DNA of 64,000 nucleotides from Eledone cirrhosa (taxonomy: Eukaryota), in the NCBI GenBank assembly GCA_964016885.1, contig OZ024741.1, positions 13,826,001 to 13,890,000 of the forward strand, given 5' to 3'. Below are positions 1,222-56,827 of the stretch, one piece after another. How positions within the stretch are numbered: position 1 is the first letter of the stretch; every line of letters begins with the position of its first letter. Made by a program: the position numbers and the translations under genes. The notes under the pieces were generated by a model. It made no database searches and had not been told where the DNA came from. It was given only the letters and a program-made list of their open reading frames with translations.

Positions 1222-1311
1222 CCAGTCTGAAGAGAGGATTGATAATGGAATTGGGTCGATAACTTCTATGGGTGACCCTGGGCCAATCCTCTGTGAAATG
1301 TGCATAACAGG
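1222..1311 (+). ncRNA. Degenerate type I hammerhead ribozyme-like motif
   Basis: CTGAAGA at 1227-1233, stem GAGGATTG/CAATCCTC, GAAA at 1295-1298, near-palindromic stem III ATGTGCAT then A, stem I CCAGT/ACAGG with one mismatch. Extra TGT before GAAA. Confidence 0.45.
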
Positions 1312-1379
1312 TCGATACACAATAAAAATCTAAAAACATGTAAACGAAACTTCGTTCTTTTTAATATATATATCCAGTC

Positions 1380-1640
1380 CAAACTAATGAGGTTCTGTAG
1401 GTGGTACAACAAAAAACACAGTCCACGCTGTAATGTGGCCATGTAGGTAACACGGTAAAAAGTTCCCAGTTCCACACTGTAAATATGGTTGGTGTTAGGA
1501 AGGGCATCCAGCCGTAGAAAACCTGCCAGATAGTCCTATACAAGCAAGACATGGTCACCCGACCAATCTTGCCTCAAGTGGGACAATTCCTGTCTAACCC
1601 ATGCTACCGTGGAAGATAGACATTAAACGATGATGATGAT
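1380..1640 (+). mobile_element. RTE-type LINE 3' UTR fragment ending in (GAT)n
   Basis: ggttggtgttaggaagggcatccagccgtagaaa...cccatgctaccgtggaagatagacattaaacgatgatgat, homologous to the 3' ends of RTE fragments elsewhere in the window. Confidence 0.7.
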
Positions 1641-1720
1641 ATATATATATATATAGTGGTAGAACACTGGAAGGTAATATCCGTAGTGGTAGAGCACTCA
1701 GTCCATGGGACGAGTTAGGT

Positions 1721-1873
1721 AGAAGTGGTTACACAACAGTTAGTTCACCATACCGAGAACAATTGTTTCACCTTAGCGGATCCTCAGCTTGTAAACCGAT
1801 TACGAGCTGAGGATCCGCTAAGGTGAAACAATTGTTCTCGGTATGGTGAACTAACTGTTGTATAACCACTTCT
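1721..1873. repeat. Near-perfect foldback (~74-bp arms) containing a hammerhead motif
   Basis: 1721-1794 is the reverse complement of 1800-1873 with few mismatches. Confidence 0.9.
1803..1840 (+). ncRNA. Minimal type I hammerhead ribozyme with palindromic stem III
   Basis: Stem I CGAG/CTCG, core CTGAGGA at 1807-1813, short stem II (CC/GG, with T-T at the first position), GAAA at 1825-1828, palindrome ACAATTGT, predicted GUU cleavage after 1836. Mirror copy on the minus strand. Confidence 0.6.
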
Positions 1874-1932
1874 CTCTCTCTATATATATATATATTTATT
1901 TGTAGTGTACTTAATACGTAGCATTGTGAACT

Positions 1933-52052: not shown

Positions 52053-53199
52053 GTATGTATGCATGTATGTGTGTGTGTTAATGTGTAAAGATATGTGTGA
52101 GCATAAATGTGTAAACTTGCATATACAAATGTGTGTGTATGTATGTATTTGTATATGTGGGAAGGTATGTTTTAACATATATATATATACGTAGCAATGT
52201 GTATGGATATGTGTGTGTGTGTGTATCTGAATGTGTATGTAGTGATATATGTGGGAATGAATGTGTGAACATATATATATGTATGTATACGTGTGTGTGT
52301 GTATACATATATATATATATATGTGTGTGTATATATATATATGTATGTGTGTGTGTATATATATATGAGTGTGTATCTAAATGTGTAAGTGTTAAATTTA
52401 TAAATCATGCAGTGTGAAAAGAGGGTAGGGGAGAGTGTGAGATGATGTAATGGGCTCCCATGGTAACTGTGTGTGTGTGTATATGTATTTATGTATGTTA
52501 GTGTAATTGTAGTCTATATGTATCATTGAATTGTGTGGGGGGGGGCTGTATGTGGGGGTGCATGTGTGTGTGTGTGGGTGTATGTGTGGGTGTGTATGTA
52601 TGTATGTGTGGGTGTATGTATGTGGGTGTGTGTGGGTGTATGAGTGTGTATGGATGTGTATGTATGTGTGTGTATGTATGTATGTATGTATGTGTGTGTG
52701 TGTGTGGGGGGGGGGGGGTAATCATGTCAAATATATGATGATAAAGCAATAAATGTTTTCTAATTTAGGGCGCCAAGGCCGGCAATGTGGGGTTGGGTGA
52801 AGTTGATTATATCAACCCCAGAATGCTACTGGTATTTTGTTTTATCCTGAGAGAATAAATGACAAAATTGGTTTCAGTGGGATTTGAACTGAGAACATTC
52901 AGTGACAAACCATATGCCTCTGACAAGTTTATCTCATACTTTAATGATTCAGCCAATCCACTCTCCTGATAATGGTTTCTACATTTGATACAAGGGGAGA
53001 TTACATCTATTTTGGTATTGAGTACTCTTTTCTCTCATCCATCAACTGCATATAGATATATGCTGTAAATTGGTTGTTGATAGGAAGGGCATCCAGTCAT
53101 AGAAATCTTGCCAAAGAAAGGGTTGGGAAGACCTTCAGTTGTGTCAAAGACATGACAGCCTCTCCTGAGCACTCAATGGAACATGTAACCATACATATG

Positions 53200-55712
53200 T
53201 TTTTATTGCAGGGGACTTCAATCACCCTGAGATTGACTGGGAAACCTTTCGTTGGCCGCCAAGTGCAAATGACTTCCTTGAGCTAGTGCTAGACTCAAAT
53301 TGGTCCCATGTAGTCACCTCCCCAACAAGAGGTGACAACACTTTTGACCTACTCTTCACCACTACTCCTGAAATGGTTATTAGTGTTACTACCGAGGAAC
53401 CTTTAGGTGACTCTGATCATGCTATGATCGTTGCCAATCTGTCCCTCATGGGTAGTAACAAGAATCACAACCATCTCCAAACTGCTCACTTTGACTGGAA
53501 TAAAGCAGACTGGAACTGTTACTGCACCGAGCTGCTACGTCCAAACTGGCTTGAATTCTATGACTCTGGAGATGTCAACACTGTACTCCAGAACATCCTG
53601 AGCTCAATATGGACAGCATGTGCAGCATCGGTGCCACGTAAGCGGAAAAAACATCCCAAAAGTGCAATTTGGGAGACTGCAACAATCCGTCTTGCCAGAA
53701 AAGAACGTCGCAATGCTGAACGTGAGTACAAACTGCACAAATCAGACATCAATAGGAAGAGGCGAAATAAATCGTCCAACCACCTTAAACAGGTGACATA
53801 AAAGGCAGTGCTTCAATTTGAGCAGCGCATAGCAACCAGCCCTGACAGTAAGGTGTTCTGGAAGTATGTTCACTCAAAGCAGAGGCCTCACTCTCCAGTT
53901 GGTCCTCTTCACAATCCACACACAAACCAGGTTACTGACGACCCCAAGGAATGCGCAGAGCTCATTGCTGAATGCTATGCAGGCATTTTCACTATTGAAG
54001 ACCAGAGTGTACCGTCTCCACCACCTATGACACCGGACTCTATTACAACCATGGAATTTACACCTGCAATGCTGCGACGTCACCTAAAAAGTAAACACAA
54101 CCATGCCTCTCCTGGTCTTGATGGTGTTACGTACCTGCTTCTTAAACGTGGTGGGTACTTCCTTCGCACCAGCTATCACGGTTCTTCCAATTCTGTCTGA
54201 ACAACAGTGCTACTCCAGAACAGTGGAAAACTGCCAGTGTCATTCCGCTGTTCAAAAAGGGTGACCGCACATCACCTGTGAACTATCGTCCAGTTAGTCT
54301 TACTAGTTGCATTGCCAAACTGATGGAATCCTGTGTCAGAGAAACACTTTGGAACTTCTGGAACTCTCAGTCTTATCCGGCCCTCGCAATTTGGATTTAT
54401 CCCCAACTCCAGCTGCTGTGATCAACTTATTGAGTTTCTTGAAGACATCACCCGGATCACTGATGGCGGCTCATGGGTGGATGTTGTTTACCTTGACTTT
54501 GCGAAAGCTTTCAATTCTGTGCCACACAAAAGGCTTATGGCAAAACTCTCTGCAATGGGTGTGAAGGATGATCTTTTTAACTGGTTGAAATCCTTCATTC
54601 TCAGTCGAAGAGAGGTAGTCACTGTTCTAGGACAGCATTCATCACCATATGAGATGTCATCTGGTGTACCACAGGGATCTGTTCTTGGCCCCCTTTTGTT
54701 TGTGGTATATATTAATGACATAGATGCCAACTTAAAGAATGCCACAGTACTAAAGTACGCAGATGACATCAAGCTGTACCTTGAGATAAAAAGGACAGAT
54801 CCTGAACACTTTAGATCTTGCTTGCACTCTGACCTGGACACAATGCAACAATGGCTAGCTGTGGACAAGTGCACCACCATGCAATTTGGGAGTAAAAACC
54901 CAGCATCCACATACTCCCTCCACAGCACTAATATCAAGAAGTCTTCTTGTGAACGTGACCTGGGCATTACGGTCAGCAGCGATTTACGTTGGACGAAGCA
55001 CGTCTCTAAAATTGTCAATAGGGCCGAGCGTGTCTTAGCATCACTCAGAAAGACCTTTGTCAGCCGCTCTCCAGCTATCTATTTAAGGCTGTACATGGCT
55101 ATGGTGCGGCCACACTTAGAATTTGCATCACCAGTCTGGAACCCCTATCTTGCTCAGAACATTGACCGCCTGGAAACTGTTCAGAGACCTGCAACCAAGC
55201 TAATACCCTCCATCAGGCATCTACCATACTCTGAACGCCTTGCTTCCCTGGGCATGGATACATTGAAACTCCGACGCCTGGCAACTGACTTGGTAAACAC
55301 CCACAAGATTATTAACCATCTTGCCAACAACAACCCTGAGTACCTTTTTGATTTCCATATGTCTAACACACGTGGGCATGCCCACAAAGTCAGAAAACAG
55401 CACAGTTCCCATGACTTTCGGAAACATTTTTTCACGCTCAGAGTTGCTGAAGCATGGAACAAACTACCTGCATCGGTTGTTAGCTGTCGAGACACTGCAG
55501 CCTTTAAAACCTCCATGCTTCCTGAGATTCGCCAACACTACACCTAATGTTCCCTCTCCATACACATACACACATGTATATCATGACTCATACACTATTC
55601 ACTTCCCTGACATTTGTGTATTATTCTATGTACTATATGTACACCTTTGACGAGTTGTAGTGCACCTGAGCACTTTACACAATAATTTTATTATTATTAT
55701 TATTATTATTAT
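53200..55712 (+). mobile_element. 5'-truncated CR1-clade LINE with disrupted EN-RT ORF
   Basis: APE motifs IAGDFNHPEIDW, PTRGDNTFDL and SDH. RT motifs NYRPVSLTS, YLDFAKAFNSVPH, GVPQGSVLGP, YADD, VRPHLEFASPVWNPY and TRGH. Stop at 53801, frameshifts near 54170 and 54360, (ATT)n tail. Confidence 0.93.
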
Positions 55713-55934
55713 AAGTACACAGGTCCTTAGCCTGCCTGGGAGATCAGTGCTGGCTCTTCTGTACAGACTTGGTCTATATAAACCTGTCTAACCCTTGCTA
55801 GCAGGGAAAGTGGACGTTAAAACGACAATGATAATTAAAGTTATATATATATATGTGTATATATATATATATATATATATATATATATATATATATATAT
55901 ATATATATATATATATATACACATATATATATAT

Positions 55935-56400
55935 ATATATGAAGGATGACAGCTGCATAAAAAGGTGCAGAGCACTAGAAGTCGATGGAAGCCGGGGATT
56001 GGGGAGACCCAAGAAGACCTGGAATGAGGTGATAAAAGCCGACCTTACCCAATTGCACCTCTCAAGGGCGATGACACATGATTTTGTGACCTCTAGAGTC
56101 ACGCTGTAACACAGAAAACCCGACTTCTCACGGGTACAAGCCGAAGTTGAAGAATATAGACAATATGCTCCCACACCCTCCCACTGCAAAGTGGTCGTGG
56201 AGGTGCCACGAAAAAAAGCTCCCAGCACTCACTGTAAATGAGGTTGGTGTTAGAAAGGGCATCCAGCTGTAGAAATCAAGCCAGAATCAGTTCCCGTATG
56301 AGCAAGACAAGGTCAGCCGACCGGACACTGCCCACAACAGGGCAACCCGTCTAACCCATGCTAGCGTGGAAGAACGGACGTAAAACGGTGATGATGATGA
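55935..56400 (+). mobile_element. RTE 3' end (subfamily A)
   Basis: [17 protein letters not shown] and [15 protein letters not shown]; (GAT)n tail; 5' end at (TA)n. Confidence 0.85.
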
Positions 56401-56486
56401 TATATATATAATAATAACTGTGTTGCTATTATTGAGTATAAACTTTAGCAGAGGGTTTAAAGCTCGATGGAGTTCACGTAGAGCTG

Positions 56487-56827
56487 ATATATAAAGATTA
56501 AGAAGCACCAAACGGTCAATATGGTATCAAACTAACATGTTTCAATTGGTAGAACTTCATCTCAAAATCAGGAATTTTCAAAATTCTTTAAGAACATTTT
56601 TTTCAAAAAAATTATTATCTAACTTCCCTTTGTTTTTATACTGTGACCATCGGGAATGGGGTCAACATGGCAGTATAAAAACAGGGAATGTTAGATAATA
56701 ATTTAAAAAAAAAAATTTTTTAGAATTCCTGATTTTGAAACTTCACATCCTCGGGGTAAAACTCTATTGGCTGAAACATGTTAGTTTAAAAGTGTATTGA
56801 ATCTTTGGTGCTTTTTAATCTTTATAT
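56487..56827. repeat. Old foldback with eroded hammerhead 3' half (GAAACATGTT)
   Basis: atataaagattaagaagcaccaaa...aaactaacatgtttca...tcaaaatcaggaatt pairs with aattcctgattttga...tgaaacatgttagttt...tttggtgctttttaatctttatat. Confidence 0.7.

Follow-up and report, generated by a model that had tools for sequence, protein, structure and literature searches.

What are the short inserts with hammerhead ribozyme motifs that lie scattered through one stretch of the genome of Eledone cirrhosa, and to what do they belong? The stretch (hereafter the window) comprises 64 kb, namely positions 13,826,001 to 13,890,000 of contig OZ024741.1 (assembly GCA_964016885.1), of a 3.0-Gb genome in which (TA)n tracts, repeats like short interspersed nuclear elements (SINEs) and satellites are abundant. 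The original prediction, made from the letters of the sequence, named eleven sites and read them as distinct non-coding or retrozyme-like elements with a connection to Penelope-like elements. We conclude that the sites are very probably the 5'-truncated, often inverted 3' ends (pseudo-long terminal repeats, pLTRs) of several coding Penelope-like families, each with a type I hammerhead predicted to cut the RNA of its element.

Our type I descriptor consisted of CTGANGA, a stem II of at least 3 pairs, GAAA, paired 15.2-16.2, UH and a stem I of at least 4 pairs; a palindromic stem III was not required. Scanned in this manner, the window holds three strict cores with all three stems, starting at +9283, +35743 and -35628, against a mean of 0.03 and a maximum of 1 in 100 dinucleotide shuffles done in 300-nucleotide (nt) blocks. 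These belong to the same three sites (9275, 35736 and, on the minus strand, 35563) that had been called intact. From 19 large contigs, with the small contigs outside the sample, we drew 60 pieces of 10 kb at round-number positions; 26 of these stretches held 52 strict cores between them, against 0-1 for every one of 10 shuffles, and the motif is thus more frequent than in shuffled sequence at both scales. The descriptor for the U3-A8 variant of the core is noisier. It found 2 matches in the window where shuffles averaged 0.40, a count that alone is not above chance, and 15 in the sampled 600 kb (9 of them from one satellite) where shuffles gave 0-4; for this reason it was excluded from the genome estimate. 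An AT-rich 27-32-bp satellite (L368:7671-8150 and L075:346-600, the L numbers being those of fetched loci) mimics a U3-A8 hammerhead and inflates relaxed searches. No hammerhead family stood among the matches listed (150 of 173) in an Rfam scan of the window; motifs this short need a descriptor.

The idea that these are chance motifs, caught up in inverted repeats of AT-rich DNA that resemble miniature inverted-repeat transposable elements (MITEs) or were born of replication, deserves practically no credence. A SINE does make a foldback in the window as well (37874-38494), and one satellite does yield false U3-A8 matches, but the shuffle comparison over 600 kb refutes a chance origin for the C3-G8 cores, and hammerheads sit at the pLTRs of full-length elements. 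The hammerhead motifs of the window are real in the sense of sequence motifs above chance; cutting by their RNA is predicted.

When each site was compared by BLAST with its own genome, 40 matches being scored for each, the eleven named sites proved to be nine multicopy families rather than single-copy arms: A (35563/35736), B (9275), C (1803), D (5300/17506), E (6860), F (1222), G (35325), H (56770) and I (17080). Their sequences, once described as unrelated, are those of several families, except that 5300 and 17506 form one family group. The first-look candidates, which are not copy numbers, came to 1719 for A, 1768 for B, 610 for C, 2143 for D, 1893 for F, 417 for G and 111 for H. Among the fetched copies, which are the best BLAST matches and therefore a non-random draw with the window's own copies included, the core pattern is kept in 20/20 of A, 19/20 of B, 25/25 of C, 20/25 of D, 17/25 of F and, in U3-A8 form, 9/12 of I; family G has the whole core in 12 of the 19 copies other than the window's. 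These counts make the seemingly eroded window copies of D and F decayed members, and that of G a truncated member, of families that have intact hammerheads.

Several sites can accordingly be described more closely. Erosion is real at 5300, where G12 is lost, and at 17506, which has U4C. At 1222 it is confined to a weakened stem II, as the core letters are intact, and at 35325 the supposed erosion is truncation, with a genuine hammerhead 3' half ending inside stem II. Site 1803, held to be near-intact, has an intact core and a 2-bp stem II opened by a U-U mismatch. Two further sites were misjudged as eroded: 17080 has the intact U3-A8 core common to its family, while on the minus strand at 6860 the core CAGAAGA (U4A) is the family state, found in 27/30 copies chosen by protein similarity rather than by motif, with a stem III of 5 bp that is not palindromic. 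Finally, neither CUGANGA nor a U3-A8 core occurs in any of 20 family H copies, the window's own included. Family H retains GATGA-stem-GAAA-GUU and lacks C3U4 in 20/20 copies, and the majority sequence where a palindromic stem III had been seen is ACATGTGT, no palindrome. Site 56770 is not counted as a hammerhead.

The connection to Penelope is provided by the DNA upstream. The window itself has no Penelope open reading frame (ORF), as was stated from the start; the sole weak tblastn match is to the reverse transcriptase (RT) of a long interspersed nuclear element (LINE) at 54492-54770. Elsewhere in the genome, where a GIY-YIG search gave 10,596 first-look candidates, six families (sites 1803, 5300/17506, 6860, 9275, 17080 and 35563/35736) extend upstream into RT/GIY-YIG ORFs, and for two of them full copies exist. 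For six of the nine families, then, the DNA taken for non-coding elements is the 3' end of a coding element, and none of the window sites is a tandem non-coding unit with hammerheads.

The two families with full copies are I and E. The 17080 sequence of family I is found at 87-92% identity downstream of the ORF in 3 of the first 30 GIY-YIG loci, and in the full copy L075 an RT/GIY-YIG ORF of 938 amino acids (aa) lies between two direct repeats with the 17083 hammerhead in each. In Pfam this ORF scores above the cut-off for GIY-YIG and just below it for RVT_1 (E 2e-6). Inspection by eye of L075 and L074 finds a CX4CxxC linker before the C-terminal GIY-YIG and a CCHH endonuclease, of which L075 has lost one His that L074 retains. 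For family E, positions 6763-7805 of the window (minus strand) match at 94% over 1052 nt the DNA directly after an ORF of the 713-aa type. At least 145 copies of this family lie at 96-100% protein identity, the 713-aa frame being open in several of them, and one C-terminal query for the family returned 79,583 first-look candidates. The order pLTR-ORF-pLTR is seen in L411, L413 and L416 (3/7 examined) with the U4A motif of 6873 in both repeats, and from hammerhead to hammerhead the unit measures 3259 nt in L411. The 713-aa ORF has no Pfam match; it aligns to the family I RT (E 2e-6), and HTH_animal, GIY-YIG and RVT_1 are found in the Atlas clusters nearest to it. Its motifs by eye are DKT, a CxCX5C linker, CxxC and CxH, no CCHH, and RWR where RWK is expected.

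In families A-D the ORF remnants are broken with the CxCX5C linker visible, the fetched copies are all truncated, and pLTR pairs are seen only for I and E. A same-strand remnant lies upstream of the family C end in L097, L098 and L100 (3/25 loci) and of the family D end in 8/30 loci. ORF and hammerhead of family B occur together in 5/30 loci and are collinear over 2 kb between two of them. The remnant of family A, found in 2/7 extended loci, lies across a microsatellite-rich 3' untranslated region (UTR) of 3-5 kb and is collinear in five blocks; a candidate fixed 5' end of this family proved to be an internal microsatellite of that UTR. By the features tested, families A-E are Hydra-type and family I is Neptune-type, an assignment made by motifs rather than from an RT tree.

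Besides the non-random draw of copies, several results weigh against our reading. No ORF link was found for family G in 20 loci and 6 extended loci, nor for family H in 20 loci and 5 extended loci, and the one link seen for family F is weak (L344, E 6e-9, with a SINE in between). ORFs near family H (L345, L346) and beside family F (L329) were rejected as links, with TA tracts or other inserts in between or the opposite strand involved. The hammerhead fold is not the minimum-energy structure in any of 7 window segments; folding of the monomer showed no significant stability and was taken as uninformative on activity. In an element of Anolis, insertion in vitro did not require hammerhead cleavage, and none of the RNA-seq reads had its end at the cut site (PMC11167929).

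Families without an ORF link might be independent non-coding, retrozyme-like elements that replicate through small circular RNAs and borrow Penelope enzymes, which would be conceivable for G, H, F and for tandem arrays elsewhere. One such array exists. At L415:1131-4700 (G000:C3:280008600-280012500), at least 12 near-identical 311-bp copies stand head to tail on the same strand, each with an intact hammerhead and a stem III of ACGCGT, and one inverted copy and a TA tract come before them. The whole looks like a non-LTR retrozyme array, and non-LTR retrozymes have been reported as Penelope derivatives (preprint 10.64898/2026.07.22.740005). They share type I hammerheads and a Penelope origin with the window families (Cervera & De la Pena 2020, PMC7229834; Li et al. 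2026 preprint), yet they are tandem non-coding units, while the window has single or inverted ends of coding elements. With six families that continue into ORFs, ragged 5' ends and no tandem unit among the window sites, we consider this explanation very unlikely.

The ends, foldbacks and tails seen in the window are as follows.

1203-1370, plus strand: end of family F; core CTGAAGA at 1227, stem II weakened here; no foldback; ORF link probable only (one locus).
1677-1873, both strands: family C foldback; tail on the minus arm (1794-1677), none on the plus arm (1799-1873).
+1807: family C core, predicted cut after 1836; 3' end of a putative Hydra-type Penelope-like element.
2285-2521, both strands: decayed foldback, an older relative of family D.
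5145-5437, plus strand: family D end at 5274-5437, whose core at 5300 lacks G12; an inverted piece with the tail (5274-5145) comes before it.
6584-6765, both strands: foldback of family O, absent from the original prediction; 3' half of a U3-A8 hammerhead with long stem III, ending inside stem II.
6784-7805, minus strand: family E 3' UTR in full, the truncation falling at about the stop codon; Hydra-type by motif, 713-aa ORF elsewhere.
6873, minus strand: family E hammerhead fold; CAGAAGA (U4A) core, 5-bp stem III, predicted cut after 6833.
9224-9387, plus strand: end of family B; core intact (at 9283), ATATATAT as stem III, cut predicted after 9327; no foldback.
16821-17191, both strands: family I foldback, a pLTR end of Neptune type by motif; minus arm 17042-16821 with tail, plus arm 17043-17191.
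17083, plus strand: family I core, intact U3-A8 core TTGAAAA on the plus arm.
17210-17319, minus strand: solo inverted tail of family D.
17503-17637, plus strand: diverged relative of family D; core CCGATGA, U4C in this copy.
35315-35505, plus strand: end of family G, ending inside a long stem II; retains GAAA, a ACGATCGT stem III and GUC.
35534-35899, both strands: family A foldback whose cores lie at -35628 and +35743, the tail being confined to the plus arm; from the 3' end of a putative Hydra-type element with a long microsatellite-rich 3' UTR.
36641-36740, minus strand: solo inverted tail of family B.
37434-37612, both strands: foldback of family N; the portion 3' of a hammerhead that is present in the longer copy L263.
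56437-56829, both strands: family H foldback, tail on the minus arm; GATGA-stem-GAAA-GUU vestige without C3U4.

Not all of these are the short inverted-repeat inserts that had been described. Full foldbacks account for 5/11 named sites (1721-1873, 16898-17191, 35535-35836 and 56487-56829); 5300 and 17506 have short inverted pieces, and there is no foldback at 1222, 6860, 9275 or 35325. Of the two arms of each of these four window foldbacks, exactly one bears the tail. A wider set of 155 copies from seven families gives the anatomy of insertion. The (TA)n context reported at the outset holds in this set: (TA)3 stands no more than 25 nt from the 3' end in 116/155 copies against a background of 14%. 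An inverted piece of the same element lies directly upstream in 68/155 copies (0/20 in family G), and 6/7 families have two main 3' ends 60-110 nt apart. Truncation at the 5' end, inverted copies, a tail and (TA)n are published signatures of Penelope-like insertion (PMC8557442), and in AT-rich DNA the Anolis element nicks both strands and extends them, with two start sites that define its tail (PMC11167929).

Other foldbacks were seen in passing. The SINE-like repeat forms one of 620 nt around a TA tract, so inverted insertion is not limited to hammerhead-bearing ends. Further foldbacks at 1933-2038 and 9403-9470 have no hammerhead found in them. Those of family O are very common, with 11 matches per 600 kb and a second occurrence in the window at 17845-17970; most copies end inside stem II, and the longer copies L120, L147 and L203 have the U3-A8 hammerhead with its long stem III.

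Based on published work, the route by which the window sites arose would be the following. The element protein would nick a (TA)n target, and reverse transcription would start close to the RNA's 3' end at one of two sites, with or without the tail. Most copies would halt after 100-300 nt, leaving little but the hammerhead. If both strands of one target were primed, one at each start, and both copies halted early, a head-to-head foldback would result. Working hammerheads would more likely be found in the tandem pLTRs of full-length elements, acting as dimers through a palindromic stem III or with the help of protein, the latter being required by the Anolis ribozyme (PMC11167929). In A, B, C and I, stem III of a monomer can close no more than 1-3 pairs, which fits the dimer model (PMC4209133; review PMC6765202). 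Window copies are likely passive debris, as the arms of a foldback lie on opposite strands and read-through RNA would be one ribozyme plus its antisense in a long hairpin. A dimer requires two copies on one strand, and for this reason the foldbacks of the window are likely silent.

How large is the population to which these sites belong? Scaled from the sample, the genome would hold ~260,000 strict cores (155,000-374,000 by bootstrap over stretches). One tandem array supplies 5 of the 52 sampled cores behind this estimate, and activity does not follow from an intact core. Published counts, made with another descriptor, are ~2,000-9,000 per genome (PMC4209133). No cephalopod hammerhead census turned up in the available literature, and the supplements of PMC4209133 and of preprint 10.64898/2026.07.22.740005 may hold cephalopod counts. 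Across all fetched loci, 322 descriptor matches fall into 54 clusters, 22 of them in at least two loci. Stem III is perfectly palindromic in 13/22 of these, or 12/21 without one satellite artefact, where a rough chance formula gives ~3. The palindromic stem III of the original prediction is therefore frequent, and it is lacking at 6860 and in the majority sequence of the family of 56770.

The variants of the core bear on whether these hammerheads still act. U3-A8 cores recur in other families (L066:2606-3117, L065, L376, L380), some with a longer stem III, and Neptune-like elements of the L041-L044 type carry a TTGATAA core; covariation of U3 and A8 is already published (PMC4209133, PMC3088659). 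In family E, A occupies position 4 in 63-65/67 motif occurrences, overlapping loci being counted twice, and all stems are present: 5 bp for stem I, 3 bp opened by a U-U for stem II and 5 non-palindromic bp for stem III. The available text of PMC3088659 names U4C and does not contain "U4A", and no natural U4A core turned up in the literature as far as available, although Lunse et al. 2017, known via the review PMC6765202, may describe one.

Such variants could mean that the sites are Penelope ends whose hammerheads are non-cleaving vestiges or protein-binding folds, most plausibly in E with its U4A and in H without C3U4. The near fixation of A4 in family E, the loss of the core from all 20 family H copies and the weak in vitro cleavage of published metazoan minimal hammerheads (PMC4209133) speak for it. 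Against it, at least 21 multi-locus clusters of distinct sequence have the core and stems in common, C3-G8 and U3-A8 being swapped among them, and palindromic stems exceed the rough chance estimate as given above. Recurring core, swap and excess palindromy together point to selection on a catalytic fold in active lineages, and we regard general loss of cleavage as unlikely. A vital role for the hammerhead is another matter: low published activity, dispensability for insertion in vitro in Anolis and the recent spread of family E with U4A weigh against it. More tentatively still, we raise the possibility, doubtful in our own estimate, that family E, young and Hydra-type, has as its fixed state a natural U4A core which, together with a stable stem III of 5 bp, still self-cleaves, possibly as a monomer, in a genome whose ~260,000 intact cores would exceed literature counts per genome more than tenfold.

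The arrangement as such is already known: hammerheads in Penelope pLTRs, truncated, inverted and in (TA)n, so that the window families are further members. In the metazoan elements of Cervera & De la Pena 2014 (PMC4209133), pLTRs likewise carry type I motifs and a genome holds many heterogeneous families; most copies are truncated and solo, pairs on opposite strands lie at a distance of 100-700 bp, and both a palindromic stem III and the U3-A8 variant occur. These elements differ in their lower numbers, and the available part of that paper makes no mention of U4A. The Hydra clade (Craig et al. 2021, PMC8557442) shares with our families DKT, the CxCX5C linker, CxxC and CxH around the endonuclease without CCHH, (TA)n targeting, a hammerhead at the 3' end, inverted 5'-truncated copies and a tail, and the family E ORF resembles by eye the Hydra alignment in its supplement. 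It differs from what is seen here in RWK for RWR, units generally <3 kb rather than ~3.3 kb and tails of 30-40 rather than 60-110 nt. The same paper gives "a small number" of extra families, one in octopus, against at least five here. That one, Hydra-1_Obim of Octopus bimaculoides, is a (TA)n-targeting, hammerhead-bearing Hydra family whose hammerhead differs by eye from those of the window; it weakens the claim that such elements are undescribed in this lineage. Family I has in common with the Neptune clade (PMC8557442) the CX4CxxC linker before a C-terminal GIY-YIG and the hammerhead pLTRs, differs in its U3-A8 core, and is assigned by motif only. The Poseidon element PAc of Anolis (Frangieh et al. 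2024, PMC11167929) also has two starts defining the tail and nicks both strands in AT-rich DNA, which fits the two 3' ends and one-tailed foldbacks here, but it belongs to another clade, and ours are known from sequence. In O. vulgaris, 31 recently active Penelope-like families have been described, with hammerheads unmentioned in the available part of that paper (PMC13282606). What is still notable in E. cirrhosa is the load of cores and the U4A variant fixed in young family E.

The window has other repeats as well. A 15.7-kb satellite (18731-34395) consists of ~421 copies of a 37-bp unit with 88% matches, and smaller arrays have units of 42 bp (9828-10587) and 41 bp (47499-48813). LINE-like remnants with endonuclease and RT sequence, both broken, lie at 53200-55550 (plus strand) and 60000-63240 (minus strand). 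Between 11230 and 13780 lies a decayed DNA-transposon-like insert with another repeat inside, which from its ends and reading frame we take to be a piggyBac-like candidate.

The meaning of these elements goes beyond the window. The one-tailed foldbacks lend genomic support to priming of both strands from two start sites. If family E does cleave, a new working hammerhead core would have been propagated to tens of thousands of copies. Natural variants are available from dozens of independent families, among them U3-A8, U10.1-U11.1, long or palindromic stem III, U4A and apparent loss of the core. Several of these families include young, almost identical copies whose ORFs are intact. Together they may serve as a test set for whether the hammerheads of Penelope-like elements must cleave.

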